A stretch of 64,000 nt of DNA from Candidatus Parvarchaeum sp. (GTDB taxonomy: Archaea; Nanobdellota; Nanobdellia; Parvarchaeales; Parvarchaeaceae). The position numbers were made by a program, and so were the translations under genes. Below the pieces are notes generated by a model. That model searched no databases. It worked only from the letters and a program-made list of their open reading frames with translations, and had not been told where the DNA came from. This document shows positions 12,113 through 56,183 of this stretch, in pieces (position 1 is the stretch's first letter; every line of letters starts with the position of its first letter). The DNA lies in contig JBMFWF010000001.1 in the NCBI GenBank assembly GCA_049965555.1, positions 83,791 through 147,790 on the forward strand, read 5' to 3'.

Positions 12113-13648
12113 TTAAACCTTTATTGTGTTTAATTTGCTCTCTAAATTAGATATATATGATAAACTGCATACTGGCGCAGTATTATTTAAAGTCTCGCAG
12201 ATCTGTGCTGTAAGTATGTTTGCTGCTCCTAAAACAGTCTGGCCAAATGAACCGCTTGTCGGATTTTCAATCGAATTAAGCATGTCCTGATGCGTACTGT
12301 ATGCTGGATTCAAACCGTTTCTAGAAAGATATGTTCCCGCATTTATATTTGCACCATCAAATACGTACTGATTATTAATGTCAAAGAATGGAACTCCTCC
12401 TACTAAAAAGTTGTATATACCAAAACCATGATATGAATTAAATGCTTGACTTGCAAGCACCACATTATTGAAAACAAACGGTGAAACGGCAGCTATGCCT
12501 GTGACATTAACCAAAAATGATGATCCAATCTCATCCAAAGGTATGAAATTTATGTAACTAGAGTTGTAATACGCTCCGACAAAGAAAGGTGTCGGATTAT
12601 TGTCTCCGTAAGGGGCTGCACCATTTATAGAGGGGTTAGAAACCGCGTTATAAAATAAATTTGCATTATAATCAAATGTGAATGTTGGAACATTTCCGTC
12701 ATTTGTAGCAGATCTATCATAAAATAAATTAGAAAAGTTGCCAAATCTCGATAATGCTACTATTATGGCCCACCGCATGCCAGCACAGAATGGACAACCT
12801 TGCGCTCCCATATAAACGAAAGTAGGCTTGCCATTATAAGTCAGTAATGGTAATTTTAATTCTGAACTTCCGTTAACCTTAACAGTTGAATTGCCGCCGA
12901 CCTTTATAGGGACTATATCATAATTATTACTGCCTATAAATAAAACGCAATAGGAAGGATTGGGCCCGTTTGAACTATTTCCTGCAGGCACGCATTCTAT
13001 ACTTCCACTTAATTGCGATTTTCCTACTTCTTCTAATTGAGTACTCAGATTTGAAAGTGCCTTTACATAATTAGGTTCCGACTTACCAATAGGCCCTTTG
13101 AAAAACTGAAGCGAAGTGGCTGAATTGTTTATCGCAGAAAAATTAGGAGATACTAACGAATTTGGGATTGGAGAACTGCCAAGATTCGAATTGGAAACTC
13201 CTGATAAATTTGCTGATGTGAACACAACTTTACCCCCTAGTGCAGATATTGTTGTTTTAGTAGGAACATGAATAATGAATAGAACTAAAATTATAACTAC
13301 TATTACAACGACTAATAAGCCTATTATCAAAGGTAGAATTAATCTATTTCTGTTATTTTGGCTTTTAGAATCAGAAACGGAATTGCTCTTTAATCTTTCA
13401 TTTTCTTCTTTTAAGCGCTGGATCTCTTTAAGTCTTTCATTCTCTTTTCTTAGCTTTTCTAGCTCATCATCATTTGAATTAGGAGTAACTTCTTCCTTCT
13501 TCTCATTGTCCTTATTGGAAGTATCCTCCTGGATAGCGGTATTTCCGCTATTTTCATTAGCATCTGAAGGCTTTTCTGGCTGCAAGTCTTTATTTGTGTT
13601 TTCATTGACTTTATTATCAGCATTGTGCTCTTTGTCTTCTTCTGGCAT
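12113..13648 (-). CDS. membrane-anchored extracellular Ser/Asn-rich glycoprotein with thioredoxin-like CPFC motif (possibly DUF929-like)
   Basis: 511 aa; acidic coiled-coil N-terminus (EKLRKENERLKEIQRLKEENERLK), one TM helix (LILPLIIGLLVVVIVVIILVLFIIHV), large Ser/Asn-rich ectodomain with many N-x-S/T sequons and AQGCPFCAGMRW. Confidence 0.45.
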   Translation of the reverse strand: MPEEDKEHNADNKVNENTNKDLQPEKPSDANENSGNTAIQEDTSNKDNEKKEEVTPNSNDDELEKLRKENERLKEIQRLKEENERLKSNSVSDSKSQNNRNRLILPLIIGLLVVVIVVIILVLFIIHVPTKTTISALGGKVVFTSANLSGVSNSNLGSSPIPNSLVSPNFSAINNSATSLQFFKGPIGKSEPNYVKALSNLSTQLEEVGKSQLSGSIECVPAGNSSNGPNPSYCVLFIGSNNYDIVPIKVGGNSTVKVNGSSELKLPLLTYNGKPTFVYMGAQGCPFCAGMRWAIIVALSRFGNFSNLFYDRSATNDGNVPTFTFDYNANLFYNAVSNPSINGAAPYGDNNPTPFFVGAYYNSSYINFIPLDEIGSSFLVNVTGIAAVSPFVFNNVVLASQAFNSYHGFGIYNFLVGGVPFFDINNQYVFDGANINAGTYLSRNGLNPAYSTHQDMLNSIENPTSGSFGQTVLGAANILTAQICETLNNTAPVCSLSYISNLESKLNTIKV

Positions 13649-13677
13649 TTTTATGTTAATACCTGTCTGCTTAAATA

Positions 13678-13982
13678 AATTGCGGTATTGAATAGCCCGT
13701 TTTTTGTCATCCCTCTGCTTTCGTTCGAAAGCTTCTCAGTTGGATGCAACAACATTCGACTAAGCGCCGGAATACCGGTTTGCACCCTGAAGGTCTGCCG
13801 TTTCATCCTCTTTTCAGCAATCAGCTTTCGCATCATCTATTTGCACTGAAAACAGGTATCGTTTCTGCTCAGTTGCCTGCCTTTTACAGCAATGCATTAC
13901 TGCACTTCAGTTTTGAAGGTGAACGGACTTCCTCCCCCAACTCATTAAAAGCCAAGGGTCTGTTGTATACAATACCGCTATT
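13678..13982 (-). ncRNA. rnpB: RNase P RNA (rnpB)
   Basis: ORF-poor, GC-enriched block. On the minus strand there is a P4 5' strand GGAGGAAGUCCGUUC (plus 13924-13935). A P4 3' strand ACAAAAAACGGGCUAUU (CR-V-like) forms 8 bp with it. A CR-II-like GAUGAAACGGCA is present. A perfect 9-bp terminal P1 helix GCGGUAUUG/CAAUACCGC closes the ends (plus 13970-13978 with 13682-13690). Length ~300 nt. Confidence 0.65.
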
Positions 13983-14013
13983 ATATATAGCAATCTGCAT
14001 TTAATAAATTATC

Positions 14014-14304
14014 ATGGAAGTCAAAACTCTTGATGATAAAGACTTGAAGAAAGATGAAAGGCTTTACATAAAAGGCATTAGATTAATCGATTCAGTAAAA
14101 GTGGACTATAAAACGCAGAAGCACGTTTCTTTTTTAGTTCAAGGAGATAATGAACTACACAATGTGATGTATTTTGATGAAAAACCGCTGGATAAAAAAT
14201 GGCAGTGCGATTGCAAATGGTATACCCTTCAGGATAAACTGTGCTCGCATATAATTGCTGTAAATTTGGCAATAAAAAACGGAAAACTGAAAATGGATCA
14301 GTAA
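14014..14304 (+). CDS. SWIM zinc-finger domain protein
   Basis: 96 aa; WQCDCKWYTLQDKLCSHIIAV = CxCxnCxH SWIM signature. Confidence 0.55.
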   Translation: MEVKTLDDKDLKKDERLYIKGIRLIDSVKVDYKTQKHVSFLVQGDNELHNVMYFDEKPLDKKWQCDCKWYTLQDKLCSHIIAVNLAIKNGKLKMDQ

Positions 14305-15035
14305 TACAGGGACATATAAGAGGGAATATTCAAGCCAGTACCTAATTTATCCAATTTTACATTTTCTTCAGATAATTCATTGTCATGCCAGTAATCAACC
14401 GCAATCATGAATGAAATCAATTTCTCATTTTTTGTCTTATCAAGGTTCTTTAATTCGCCATTTTCAAAAAGATATATCCTAGAGCCTATTACTTTATTCT
14501 TGTTTATAGTTTGCCTGTAAACTAACGTTATACCATTCACTTCCTTTTCACTGTAAAACCTTGCCTTTACTGTTTTGTTCAAATTCTCTTTCCCTGCTTT
14601 TACATCCGGGTATTCAAAGTACCTTTCGGATTTTATAATTGAATAATTGCTTAGGCTTTTGCTAGATGAACCGTCGTAAACTGAAAGATTAAGCAATGCC
14701 AAATTTGGTATGGAGTCTTTTTCAGAGAAATTTTCAGTGTAAAGTTTAGATGAAACTACATATGAATTATTTGTCTCTTTCAGTTTTTCCATGTTTACAA
14801 GGAATAAATCGAGGTTTTTATCTAGATACATGAGATTTCTGCTCCCTTTCTTTGCTATTATGTGCTTGCTGTCTCCTTTGTTTTTATACCAGTTAAAAGT
14901 ATCCGATGACTGAATAACTGTTAAATCCTCATTTTCGGAGATAAGATTCAATATTTCCTTATCTGAAATGGTTATGTAATCCTGCTTTAGAAGGTCATCT
15001 AAAATACCTCTTTCATTTTTCGGTATCATAATCAA
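14298..15035 (-). CDS. hypothetical protein (245 aa)
   Basis: Long clean ORF; no recognisable motif. Confidence 0.35.
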   Translation of the reverse strand: MIMIPKNERGILDDLLKQDYITISDKEILNLISENEDLTVIQSSDTFNWYKNKGDSKHIIAKKGSRNLMYLDKNLDLFLVNMEKLKETNNSYVVSSKLYTENFSEKDSIPNLALLNLSVYDGSSSKSLSNYSIIKSERYFEYPDVKAGKENLNKTVKARFYSEKEVNGITLVYRQTINKNKVIGSRIYLFENGELKNLDKTKNEKLISFMIAVDYWHDNELSEENVKLDKLGTGLNIPSYMSLYY

Positions 15036-29178: not shown

Positions 29179-29601
29179 TTATCTTAATGAATTTTGGTAG
29201 CTTTCATAAAGCTTATTTGCTTCTTCTTCTAGCTTTGTCCCTCTCTCCTGTAAAACCTGTATTGTCTGGGCTATCGAAGAGATATTTCCACTTACTTCTT
29301 TAAAATCGCTTTCTAGCTTTGACTTTAATTCTTTGAATGAAAAAGACTTAAAGATGTTGCTTCCTATGCTGATTATTGCACTATCAAGCTTATTGATGCT
29401 GCCTTTTATAAAAATGTCCTGTGCATAAGGTATCAAAACATCGCTGTTTTCTTTTAAGGAATTCAAACCATCCAAGGCCCTTGCAATATTGTCTTGCGTC
29501 GCCTGGAGATTATTGAGAACATTTATGTAATTTTCAAGCTCTCTTCTTATATACTCTATTTCCATCAGCTGATTGCTCAGCTTTTCCTCATCAATTTCCA
29601 T
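29179..29601 (-). CDS. pfdA: prefoldin alpha subunit
   Basis: 140 aa coiled-coil-hairpin-coiled-coil; conserved position upstream of ftsY in archaea. Confidence 0.75.
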   Translation of the reverse strand: MEIDEEKLSNQLMEIEYIRRELENYINVLNNLQATQDNIARALDGLNSLKENSDVLIPYAQDIFIKGSINKLDSAIISIGSNIFKSFSFKELKSKLESDFKEVSGNISSIAQTIQVLQERGTKLEEEANKLYESYQNSLR

Positions 29602-29865
29602 TTACTGGCCCTGCTTTACAAGATTCACTGTGACTATCTTTTTATCGTCTTTTGAGCAGATTACTCTTATCTTTGTTCTAGGGTCTTTCATCCCTCTGCT
29701 AAATATTTCATTGTTTACGTCTTGACTTATTTTAACATCATCTGCCTTCATGTGCCTTTTTATGAAGGCCCTCAAGTACTTTGCAGCAGCCGCGGCCCTT
29801 TTGTAAGGAGGTACCTTCTCTATGCCTCTGCGCATATTTACCATCAATATTTTTTGCTCTGCCAT
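29602..29865 (-). CDS. rpl31e: ribosomal protein L31e (eL31)
   Basis: Matches eL31 (MVNMRRGIEKVPPYKRAAAAAKYLRAFIKRHM...IRV). The ATG at 29865 is taken as the start: the track's 29877 start is a TTG, and this ATG lies 2 nt after the L39e stop. Confidence 0.8.
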   Translation of the reverse strand: MAEQKILMVNMRRGIEKVPPYKRAAAAAKYLRAFIKRHMKADDVKISQDVNNEIFSRGMKDPRTKIRVICSKDDKKIVTVNLVKQGQ

Positions 29866-29866
29866 T

Positions 29867-30013
29867 TTATCTACCAACGTTCTTATTCATTCTTGACCTG
29901 TCCATTTTTCTTGTCCCGTATTTCCTTATCTGCGCAAATACAGGTGGGCGACTCGTCTTCCTAGCATGTCTTATCAATGCTCTTTTTTTGTTTGCCGATT
30001 TATTCCTTGACAT
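29867..30013 (-). CDS. rpl39e: ribosomal protein L39e (eL39)
   Basis: 48-aa basic ORF not in the track (<60 aa): MSRNKSANKKRALIRHARKTSRPPVFAQIRKYGTRKMDRSRMNKNVGR; sits exactly in the conserved slot between the PDCD5-like gene and rpl31e. Confidence 0.55.
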   Translation of the reverse strand: MSRNKSANKKRALIRHARKTSRPPVFAQIRKYGTRKMDRSRMNKNVGR

Positions 30014-30015
30014 AT

Positions 30016-30303
30016 TTATTTGTTCTCAAACTTTATTTTTTGTTCTTTTTTTGGTTGTGCTATAGTCTGCAGCAGTTCTTTCAACCTTTCATCATCTATG
30101 ACAGATTTAAGCCTTCCTGTTAAAGCAGACTGGATAAGCATGTTTTCTACTTCTTCTGCCAACTCAGGATGGGCATACCTTAAGTTTCCAAGCCTCTCTC
30201 TCGCTTCCTTTGTGAGGAACTTCACAAGAATCTCTTGCTTCAACTGCTCCATCTTCTTTCTCTGCTCCAATTCTGAAAGATCGTTTTTATTCTGATATTC
30301 CAT
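30016..30303 (-). CDS. PDCD5/TFAR19-like dsDNA-binding protein
   Basis: 95 aa; conserved archaeal gene between rps19e and rpl39e; helical K/E-rich pattern with GRLKSVIDDERLKELL. Confidence 0.65.
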   Translation of the reverse strand: MEYQNKNDLSELEQRKKMEQLKQEILVKFLTKEARERLGNLRYAHPELAEEVENMLIQSALTGRLKSVIDDERLKELLQTIAQPKKEQKIKFENK

Positions 30304-30733
30304 ATTTTTTCGCGGTTTCCATCGCTGCTTTGTCTGTAAATGCTATTCCTTTCGGAGTAAGCGTCCTGCCGAAATGATTCTGTACCTTTACTTTCTTAAT
30401 CAGCTCTGCCTTCTCTAATTCCTGCAGTATGTGCCTTATTATTGCACCGCTTGCAGGCTTAAAATGCTTGCCACTGTATCTATTCTTTTCCTTGTCCCCA
30501 TAGATATTTCTTAAACGATTTACTCCTATAGGTTTTTTATTAATGTACATCCTCCTCATTATGCTTGCCGCTCTAAGGTACCACCAGTTATCCTGGGAAG
30601 GCACCCTGTCTTTTGCTGAACCTGTTTTCACAAACATCGCCCATTCCGGTGGTGGCGTTAATTTTTCTTCCTCTAGCTTCTTTGCAAGTTCATTCACCAA
30701 TTCTATCTGATTTACGTCATATCCTCTTATCAT
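30287..30733 (-). CDS. rps19e: ribosomal protein S19e (eS19)
   Basis: 148 aa; PPEWAMFVKTGSAKDRVPSQDNWWYLRAASIMRRMYI and GRTLTPKG match eS19. Confidence 0.85.
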   Translation of the reverse strand: MIRGYDVNQIELVNELAKKLEEEKLTPPPEWAMFVKTGSAKDRVPSQDNWWYLRAASIMRRMYINKKPIGVNRLRNIYGDKEKNRYSGKHFKPASGAIIRHILQELEKAELIKKVKVQNHFGRTLTPKGIAFTDKAAMETAKKYGISE

Positions 30734-31010
30734 ATTTTACCTTTCTAACATTTCCACAATTTAAGCATTTATAGGTTAAAAAACCTTGCTTCAACCTAAC
30801 CCTGCAGTTAACTCCAGGTATAAGTAATCTATTACAGCTTCTACATATTAAAAACTTTTCCTCTTTTGGCAGTTTTATCTTTTTAGAGGTCAGCATTCTC
30901 TTAGCTATGTAAGCATACCTGTCTGAGAGGGCTTTATTCTTCCTTGCTTCCCTCATCAAGTAATCAAAATCCCTTTTGAATCTCTTTTCATCTTTAATAT
31001 GCACTGCCAT
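30717..31010 (-). CDS. rnp4: RNase P protein subunit Rpp21 (Rpr2)
   Basis: 97 aa; zinc ribbon CRSCNRLL...CLNCG and N-terminal basic helices typical of Rpp21. Confidence 0.8.
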   Translation of the reverse strand: MAVHIKDEKRFKRDFDYLMREARKNKALSDRYAYIAKRMLTSKKIKLPKEEKFLICRSCNRLLIPGVNCRVRLKQGFLTYKCLNCGNVRKVKYDKRI

Positions 31011-44234: not shown

Positions 44235-44329
44235 CGTCGGGGATGGGGGTTGAACCCATTAAGGCTTGCGCCAACATGCTTTCCGTTTCTGAATAGCAGG
44301 CATGCACCTTACCGTTCGGTCACCCCGAC
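44235..44329 (-). tRNA. tRNA-Ser (anticodon GCU), class II with long variable arm and a ~13-nt intron in the anticodon loop
   Basis: Reverse complement: acceptor gtcgggg/ccccgac, discriminator G, 3-bp D-stem, anticodon stem catgc/gcatg enclosing 20 nt (ctGCTa + 13-nt insert), 15-nt variable arm, T-arm atggg-ttcaacc-cccat. Confidence 0.7.
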
Positions 44330-44423
44330 TTATTACAGATTAGAGTAACTAATCTATTTTAAGTTATTGCTATTGATTATGAATTTATTTTTTACGCTTT
44401 GACGCTTGAAGGCAAAAGCAAAT

Positions 44424-44686
44424 GACAGGCCATGGCTTCGAAATAGCTATCCATATAGAGGGTAACAACATTTTCTCCTTACAGTTTACCTACAAGCACG
44501 CTTCAGCTTAATTACGGTTGCTCCCTTCCGGGCCTGGCCGGGTTCTTAAACCAAAGCATCCTATAGGGCTGTAAATCTACGATAGCTTTGCTACCATGTA
44601 TAGAGTCACTATCCCTCGGCCACGCTTCGCCGCGCCTAAAGTCCATTTGCGCTGCAGGGAGGGACTAACTCCCCAGCTAGCCTGTC
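44424..44686 (-). ncRNA. ffs: signal recognition particle RNA (7S/SRP RNA)
   Basis: GC-enriched ORF-poor block; minus strand contains the invariant helix-8 motif CCAGGCCCGGAAGGGAGCAACCG (plus 44521-44543 region) and the ends pair as a 9-bp terminal helix GACAGGCUA/UGGCCUGUC; lies next to tRNA-Ser as in many archaea. Confidence 0.75.
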
Positions 44687-44987
44687 AAATATTAGCTGAT
44701 GTTTATAGAATAAATAGGTATTACTACTACAAACGAAAAACGGCAGGAGAATTGTCAATCGACAGTATACGCAAAAGATTTTTTTAACAGTATTAAAATA
44801 GAACGTAACCTTGCAGGTAGTACTTATGTATATACCTTAAAAATGTATAATTGTTGGTCACAGTGAAATGCATGCATAAAAGTTATATGCCGCAGACCCA
44901 GTAAATCCCCCCATAAAGGTAGGGTCCAAAAAAAACGGAAATAACGTATATTCATTGTGACCCTTGTAATTAAAACAAAATGGCCTT

Positions 44988-52714: not shown

Positions 52715-52835
52715 TCCCTGCGGCCGGACTCGAACCCGCAACCTACCGGTTTCCGCAGCTGAAACTCTTCATTGCACTGAAAAACAGCACTTAGTAATTC
52801 TACAGCCGGTCGCTCTACCATTGGGCTACGCAGGG
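52715..52835 (-). tRNA. tRNA-Tyr (anticodon GUA) with ~49-nt intron
   Basis: Reverse complement folds with acceptor ccctgcg/cgcaggg. It has the archaeal/eukaryal Tyr identity pair C1:G72 and A73. The anticodon stem accgg/ccggt encloses ctGTAg plus a 49-nt insert. The T-arm is gcggg-ttcgagt-ccggc. Confidence 0.7.
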
Positions 52836-55581: not shown

Positions 55582-55839
55582 TTACCTTATTGGCATTGCC
55601 TCCATCTCAGTCTCCTTAAGCATCAATATATCTCCAACGACTACTGGCCCACGCACATTCCTGCGTATTATTTTGTCTTTATCCATGCCAGCCAGAACCT
55701 TGCATCTTACTTGGGTGACTTCTCCCGCTACCCCGTGTCTTCCAACTATCTCTATGACTTCAGCAGGGTATGCATCTAAAAAACGCTGTTCTGTGTTGTC
55801 CCCTTTGTTTTCCGGGCTTTTGTTCTGCTGCTTTTTCAT
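55582..55839 (-). CDS. rps28e: ribosomal protein S28e (eS28)
   Basis: [56 protein letters not shown] consensus; N-terminal extension. Confidence 0.8.
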
Positions 55840-56183
55840 AAATTCTTAATTTTCCCAATTAGGTCTTCCATTGCATGTGCTTCCTCTCCGGGATTCACTA
55901 CTGCAACTGCAGACGTGCCTATGCTCATGCCGCATGCCTTTCCAAGTTCTACTTTGCTGCTCACTGCAATGCATGGAACATTCTTATCTTTTGAAAGAAG
56001 AGGAATATGCATTATTATCTCCTTTGGAGAAACATCCGAGGCATATATTACAAGCCTTGCCTGACCTCTCTCCAATACTTTAGTCACTTCATTTATTCCT
56101 TTTTTAGTAACTCCGCCTTTTGCTCTTATCTTTTCCAAGACGGAAAAAACTTGACTGTCCAAACCTTTAGCTTCATCTACCAT
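55836..56183 (-). CDS. rpl7ae: ribosomal protein L7Ae (eL8)
   Basis: 115 aa; KG.NE.TK..ERG.A.LV..A.DV.P.EI..H.P.L...KN.P consensus. Confidence 0.9.

Follow-up and report, generated by a model that had tools for sequence, protein, structure and literature searches.

The window analysed here, a stretch of 64,000 nucleotides, contains on its minus strand, at positions 13682-13978, what its sequence makes almost certainly the catalytic RNA of the ribonucleoprotein RNase P of a Parvarchaeales (DPANN) archaeon. RNase P is the universal enzyme which trims the 5' ends of tRNAs. We scanned the whole window with cmscan against Rfam 15, and the archaeal RNase P RNA model RF00373 was matched over its full length (model positions 1-288 of 288, not truncated) with a score of 120.1 bits against a gathering score of 84 and an E-value of 4.9e-33. 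The fold of the single sequence is unusually stable (MFE z = -3.8), its stability being equalled by none of 200 shuffles. A first-pass annotation of this DNA had read an RNase P RNA here and had proposed a covariance-model search; the full-length match, well above the gathering score, and a fold stabler than the shuffles mean that this reading was correct. The gene and its two neighbors are the following, a position p of the RNA being 13979 minus the window coordinate:

13682-13978, minus strand: RNase P RNA gene, 297 nt (RF00373, MFE z-score, covariation in 28 sequences)
12113-13648, minus strand: DUF929 membrane-protein gene, flank of the RNA gene
14014-14304, plus strand: SWIM zinc-finger gene, 96 aa, flank of the RNA gene

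The gap between the two protein genes is, as first described, enriched in G+C (0.415-0.45, the flanks having about 0.30-0.37), and its length is 365 nt (13649-14013) instead of the 360 nt given at first. The perfect 9-bp P1 helix, GCGGUAUUG with CAAUACCGC, is real and pairs 13978-13970 with 13690-13682. The ends which had been placed by it at about 13678 and 13982 are put 4 nt further in, on both sides, by the covariance model; the wider ends take in an A·A mismatch and, past it, three potential A-U pairs. The other motifs which had been quoted are all found on the minus strand (GGAGGAAGUCCGUUC at about 13934-13920, GAUGAAACGG at 13807-13798 and ACAAAAAACGGGCU at 13707-13694). When we rescanned 13500-14150 permissively, the only match beyond RF00373 was a chance-level one to the C/D-box RNA sR30, inside P12 (13792-13840, minus strand, 15.7 bits, E 0.2). 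This match is the P12 K-turn module GAUGAUG...CUGA of the RNase P RNA and not a separate sRNA.

The fold matches that of the archaeal family: CR-I and CR-V pair into the P4 pseudoknot, the CR-II/CR-III module is present, and so are P1 to P3, P5, P7 to P12 and P15. The conserved regions CR-I to CR-V stand in the canonical order, GAGGA-AGUCC, CAGAAACGA, GAUGAAACGG, GCUUAGUCGAAUG and ACAAAAAACGGGCUA, aligned to the consensus. The parts of the RNA, all on the minus strand, are listed here from its 5' end:

13970-13978, minus strand: P1 5' strand, pairing with 13682-13690 (9 bp, 100% paired, six pairs with double changes)
13934-13958, minus strand: P3 hairpin, 10 bp, in the window and seven close relatives
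13922-13933, minus strand: CR-I and P4 5' strand (AGGAAGUCCGUU), with two A where the consensus has three
13787-13910, minus strand: specificity domain with P7, P8, P9, P10/11, CR-II, P12 and CR-III (cmscan and covariation)
13857-13868, minus strand: CR-II (CAGAAACGA)
13798-13807, minus strand: CR-III (GAUGAAACGG)
within 13787-13910, minus strand: P12 K-turn module, GAUGAUGC...GCUGAUU
13767-13778, minus strand: P15 hairpin, CCGG-UAUU-CCGG, 4 bp, nearly invariant with two compensatory pairs
13708-13746, minus strand: helix at the P19 position, 39 nt, made of an outer stem of 5 bp, an asymmetric internal loop and an inner hairpin of 6 bp with a GAAC loop
13694-13707, minus strand: CR-V and P4 3' strand (ACAAAAAACGGGCU) (cmscan, covariation)

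Two further matches to models of the same clan overlap the match to RF00373, score lower and were suppressed by cmscan. These overlapping matches are what could favor another member of the RNase P clan, of bacterial type or RNase MRP-like, which the archaeon would have acquired horizontally. However, the archaeal model gives the best match and the full-length one, CR-II, CR-III and J15/2 (GCUUAGUCGAAUG) follow the archaeal consensus, and the close relatives described below all come from archaeal genomes; we consider a foreign origin of this kind to have a next to negligible chance of being true.

We looked for relatives of the archaeal RNA with a search pattern made of CR-I, CR-II and CR-III (GAGGAAGTCC..CAGAAACGA..GATGAAACGG) in the GTDB contigs, one genome being taken per species. 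The pattern was found at 27 loci, all in DPANN MAGs labelled Parvarchaeota, 'Nanoarchaeota' and, in one case each, Woesearchaeota and Micrarchaeota; Candidatus Parvarchaeum ARMAN-4 and ARMAN-5 are among them. Every locus has one RF00373 match of 243-297 nt and 104-143 bits. The window RNA is 96.3% identical to its closest relative (locus L009), 95.3% identical to that of ARMAN-5 and 89.9% identical to that of ARMAN-4, and outside the conserved regions the orthologues differ by up to about 50%, while the five conserved regions vary little or not at all among the 28 sequences. We also noted a locus from the Micrarchaeota MAG (L020, 5080-5322) which carries the shortest RNA of the set (243 nt) with the best score (143 bits); it has a CR-I with two A and a U·G register in P4 as in the window, and its P19 position is occupied by no more than a simple hairpin of 4 bp.

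The window RNA and its 27 orthologues were aligned with MAFFT (alignment A1), and the pairs of the cmscan structure, to which the extra helix at the P19 position was added, were counted explicitly. Over the whole structure 94.8% of the cells are standard pairs, against 83.9% in shuffles, and in 55 of the 83 pairs both partners have changed. The alignment has a covariation score of 0.317, which none of 500 shuffles reached; for shuffled alignments the score is 0.144. As a control, we slid the 3' partners by one to three columns, and the pairing fell to 35-50%. Each of the helices P1, P2, P3, P4, P5, P7, P8, P9, P10, P11, P12 and P15 has covariation support; in the variable part of P12 the pairing (75.6%) is underestimated, since MAFFT and pair counting were used instead of a custom covariance model. 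These compensatory changes maintain the helices, which means that the fold is under purifying selection.

Two open reading frames cover the gap:

13651-13836, minus strand: ORF of 61 aa with an ATG start
13744-14004, plus strand: ORF of 86 aa with an ATG start

Both begin with ATG in the genome of the window, and one could suppose that the gap encodes one or both of these small proteins and no RNA. Against this, neither has a Pfam match, the orthologous loci contain stops or frameshifts, the start codon of the plus-strand ORF is lost in most relatives, and the substitutions are those of compensatory base pairing and not codon-like. Hence, we concluded that both ORFs are spurious, as had been proposed at the outset; that the gap would encode proteins is extremely improbable.

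The order of genes around the RNA is also kept: the 245-aa protein and the SWIM gene are followed, divergently, by the RNA, the DUF929 gene and a 288-aa protein. The SWIM gene adjoins the RNase P RNA at 26 of the 27 loci, with identities going down to 53%. The 245-aa protein (14298-15035, minus strand), for which we found no Pfam, NCBIfam or PDB sequence match, lies beside the RNA at almost all Parvarchaeales loci, with identities going down to 30%.

The RNA gene would form an independent transcription unit, as suggested by two short tracts:

14000-14008, minus strand: candidate TATA box (TTTATTAAA), spanning -30 to -22 relative to the mature 5' end
13671-13681, minus strand: putative archaeal terminator, the T-rich tract aatttatttaa directly after P1

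An A/T box lies at an equal upstream distance in the orthologues, and T-rich tracts follow the gene in most of them. A scan for sigma-70 promoters and intrinsic terminators, whose models are not applicable to Archaea, gave a chance-level match only.

We now turn to P4, where the window RNA departs from the consensus. The 8-bp pairing first proposed between AGUCCGUU and AACGGGCU is real: it joins 13929-13922 to 13701-13694, is paired in 100% of the 28 sequences and has three compensatory pairs, the changes being from G-C to A-U and from U-A to C-G. In the cmscan alignment there is a gap in CR-I (GAGGA-AGUCC), which has one A fewer than the consensus, and CR-V reads CGGGCU. A uridine of P4 (U52 in T. 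maritima) is universally conserved and bulged out (PMC3488217). It is present and invariant in our sequences, and in the only register which pairs the distal half of P4 it faces an invariant G. This register is paired at 100% and the canonical one, with the uridine bulged, at 62%. On this alignment the normally bulged catalytic uridine is not formally bulged and a U·G pair would take its place. The frequency of the two-A CR-I among the 27 loci is biased, as the search pattern itself required it, while the change in CR-V lay outside the pattern.

The second departure is an insertion of 36 nt relative to RF00373, located between the 3' strand of P2 and CR-V. This is the position named P19 in bacterial and eukaryotic RNAs. 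The helix found there has double changes in all five outer pairs and in five of the six inner pairs of alignment A1. The flanking stems vary; in the internal loop, A239, G244 and A245 on one strand and G264 and A265 on the other do not change in 27 of 27 sequences. A K-turn consists of a canonical stem, a bulge of 3 nt, tandem sheared G·A/A·G pairs and a non-canonical stem. The loop of the P19-position helix sets tandem G·A/A·G beside the canonical stem in the manner of a K-turn, and its bulge is of 5 nt instead of the usual 3. It thus looks like a K-turn, and we describe it as a putative one.

We had considered the P19-position helix as a possible novelty. It is already recorded for archaeal type A RNAs (PMC2858038) and in a 2026 survey of archaeal RNase P RNAs (PMC12974513). 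We also scanned metagenomes for RNase P RNAs in which GAAUG and ACARAA are separated by 17 nt or more, which gave 78 loci (L028-L105). Most of them have the canonical CR-I with three A (GAGGAAAGUCC) and inserts of 22-44 nt which form hairpins at the P19 position; several show a short spacing from CR-III to J15/2, which indicates a small P15. Of 20 loci tested, 19 are RF00373 matches. The prior records, and the P19 present in these 19 of 20 tested metagenomic archaeal RNAs, led us to reject the novelty. Among the 78 loci, the two-A CR-I occurs together with the GA/GA loop only in five Parvarchaeales-like sequences.

P3 is a further departure. In 20 of the 27 orthologues it has shrunk to CC-AUAAAA-GG, and some of these RNAs are about 90% identical overall to RNAs which bear a P3; this means that P3 is easily gained or lost in the lineage. 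The loci with the reduced form are:

L001-L004, L006, L007, L010, L011, L013, L014, L017-L019, L022-L027

In M. jannaschii, P3 contacts Pop5 and Rpp30, and the survey, which covers 298 archaeal RNAs, reports its loss in some Nanoarchaeales (PMC12974513).

In the remaining helices, the specificity domain is type-A-like: P8 is present (GUGCA-GUAA-UGCAU) and all five of its pairs covary. The P15 region is reduced, 4 nt standing where the model has 35 positions for L15, P16 and P17. Hence there is no P6 pseudoknot and no loop pairing with CCA.

An archaeal RNase P holoenzyme is made of the RNA with Pop5, Rpp30, Rpp21, Rpp29 and L7Ae. L7Ae binds K-turns and is, in characterised systems, one of the subunits of archaeal RNase P. 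Two of the five proteins are encoded in the window:

30717-31010, minus strand: Rpp21 (RNase P protein component 4), Pfam Rpr2, E 4.8e-14
55836-56183, minus strand: L7Ae, Pfam Ribosomal_L7Ae, E 2.4e-23, adjoining S28e

The first-pass annotation had the coordinates and identity of Rpp21 right; the gene lies on the minus strand and not on the plus strand, where the frame contains five stop codons. Rpp21 further matches the NCBIfam model PRK03954, 'ribonuclease P protein component 4', with an E-value of 8.7e-15 and a score below its cut-off, and the PDB entries 2K3R, 1X0T, 6K0A_G and 6AHR_K, human Rpp21 being included. Its gene overlaps that of S19e by 17 nt. Both belong to a compact cluster on the minus strand (29179-31010) of genes which overlap or abut, encoding Rpp21, S19e, a PDCD5-like dsDNA-binding protein, L31e and prefoldin. 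The scan of 54 ORFs of the 64-kb window gave no Pop5, Rpp30 or Rpp29, and no divergent forms of them came up among its unassigned ORFs at Pfam E-values up to 1 and NCBIfam E-values up to 0.1; for the 245-aa neighbor alone we also ran a PDB sequence search, which was empty as well. For ARMAN-5, the sole Parvarchaeota genome covered in another work, RPP21 and L7Ae only are listed, Pop5, Rpp30 and Rpp29 being undetected (PMC4919917, supplement, where the column order is taken from the footnote).

The substrates can be examined in the same window. None of its six tRNA genes encodes the 3'-CCA, which fits the missing L15, according to the argument made for M. jannaschii (PMC6565675). An A/T-rich TATA-like box (for example ATTTATTAAT and CTTAAAATAG) lies upstream of each tRNA gene, about -34 to -25 relative to the mature 5' end:

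1924, 17852, 36035, 39400, 44329 and 52835: tRNA genes with an upstream A/T box

If this box is the promoter, the leaders of the pre-tRNAs would be only a few nucleotides long, which recalls, without matching them, the leaderless tRNAs of Nanoarchaeum equitans. Two of the tRNA genes, of 121 and 95 nt, contain introns (52715-52835 and 44235-44329, both on the minus strand) and were found by Rfam but missed by ARAGORN. Close by lies an archaeal SRP RNA (44423-44687, minus strand; RF01857, 111.7 bits against a gathering score of 96.5) with a deletion of 41 nt relative to the model in distal helix 5/6.

In a related DPANN lineage, that of Nanoarchaeum equitans, RNase P has been lost altogether (PMC3491384). 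One may then ask whether the RNA of the window is a decaying relic, no longer a working ribozyme, of a function which is being lost in the same way. The loss of P15-P17 and P6, a P3 nearly gone in 20 of 27 relatives, the filled bulge of P4, the three proteins undetected by others in ARMAN-5 (PMC4919917) and the very short tRNA leaders which the A/T boxes would give all point in this direction. Against it, the five conserved regions show little or no variation, the helices are kept by compensatory changes, Rpp21 is retained, and both synteny and promoter-like signals are conserved. Decay of this kind appears to us very unlikely, and we keep the reading of a functional RNase P RNA.

Family membership and a fold maintained by selection are what the comparison of sequences establishes; the rest of the mechanism of this RNA is transferred from characterised homologues. 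By analogy with these, the T-loops of CR-II and CR-III would dock the tRNA elbow and an A of J5/15 would stack on the first base pair of the acceptor. With its P15 of 4 bp and without L15, the RNA would not pair with the 3'-CCA, like the enzymes of type M and of eukaryotes. It would work with proteins, Rpp21 and L7Ae among them, which may compensate for the lost RNA elements, and L7Ae would bind the K-turn module of P12. More speculatively, the P19 loop could be an L7Ae site which replaces the lost K-turn of P16-P17 (KT1 of type A; PMC5499556). Likewise speculatively, P19 could block the dimeric architecture (RPR)2(Pop5-Rpp30)2: when an artificial P19 was inserted at the same position, the RNase P of M. 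jannaschii became monomeric and less active (PMC6565675).

These features could be parts of one remodelled Parvarchaeales RNase P. In such an enzyme, the core would have an A-U pair deleted and a G opposite the P4 uridine, the L7Ae site of the C-domain would have moved from P16-P17 to the K-turn-like loop of P19, and P19, together with the vestigial P3 of many members, would preclude the (Pop5-Rpp30)2-bridged dimer of M. jannaschii. We regard it as rather doubtful that all of this holds jointly. If it did, the holoenzyme would be monomeric and eukaryote-like, and its set of C-domain proteins might be smaller or have been replaced.

The gene is a housekeeping gene of the ordinary kind, from a tiny archaeon of acid-mine type (Parvarchaeales, DPANN), and has a few structural quirks of its lineage. 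It was found at once by a standard covariance model and has close orthologues in public genomes, and only the lineage-specific details are notable. Its first consequence is a correction of the annotation, two ORFs being replaced by one essential non-coding RNA gene, here and at the syntenic locus of related DPANN. Furthermore, a lineage with reduced genomes keeps a ribonucleoprotein RNase P, unlike Nanoarchaeum equitans. If confirmed, the U·G in place of a bulged U, the K-turn-like P19 loop, the absence of a CCA-binding loop and the dispensable P3 are for RNase P specialists, since both the catalytic core and the quaternary architecture are concerned.

Finally, the RNA must be placed among the known systems. 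Its closest counterparts are those of ARMAN-4, ARMAN-5 and other Parvarchaeales MAGs (L016, L012, L009, L021 and others), orthologues which are 90-96% identical and which share the helices, the element at the P19 position, the small P15, the two-A CR-I and the neighboring genes. They belong to different species, the flanking proteins being 74-95% identical in the closest and less so in distant ones, and an exact-sequence look-up of the DUF929 protein returned nothing. Hence the window derives from a Parvarchaeales archaeon other than those already sequenced.

For the two archaeal types we used the definitions of PMC2475606, PMC5499556, PMC6565675 and PMC2858038: type A has P8, L15, P16, P17, P6 and P19, while type M is without all of them (PMC2475606, PMC2858038, PMC5499556). 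With type A (Pyrococcus furiosus, Methanothermobacter) the window RNA has in common CR-I to CR-V, P1-P5 and P7-P12 with P8, P9 and the P12 K-turn (PMC5499556). It differs by the absence of L15, P16, P17 and the P6 pseudoknot and by a U52 which would lie opposite G instead of being bulged; the loss of L15, P16 and P17 means that the K-turn of the C-domain, KT1, and the CCA-binding loop are gone as well. Relative to the Rfam archaeal consensus, it adds the 39-nt helix between P2 and P4. With type M (Methanocaldococcus jannaschii, cryo-EM, PMC6565675) it shares a short terminal P15 hairpin without a recognition element for 3'-RCCA, the absence of P16, P17 and P6, and tRNA genes without an encoded CCA. 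However, it keeps P8, which is absent from type M (PMC2475606; PMC2858038), and has a helix at the position of P19, which type M lacks (PMC2858038). As P8 and P19 are kept and L15, P16, P17 and P6 are gone, the RNA fits neither type as defined. It is a mosaic and not a pure form of A or of M: the type A or M consensus expected by the first-pass annotation is borne out insofar as the architecture of P1, P4 and the conserved regions covaries in the 27 orthologues. This does not make it a new kind of RNA, as P19 and the losses of P16, P17 and P6 are already documented in Archaea (PMC12974513, PMC2858038); the survey found P19 in various clades and repeated, independent losses of P16, P17 and P6 (PMC12974513).

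In its inventory of helices, the window RNA is closest to the eukaryotic nuclear RNA (human H1, yeast RPR1), with which it shares P8, a P19 stem located between P2 and P4, a simple hairpin of P15 type without CCA pairing and the lack of P6 and P17. In contrast with the eukaryotic RNA, it does not have the internal-loop expansion of P3, its proteins are of archaeal type and its sequence is clearly archaeal. The resemblance to eukaryotes is one of architecture and is not evidence of descent.
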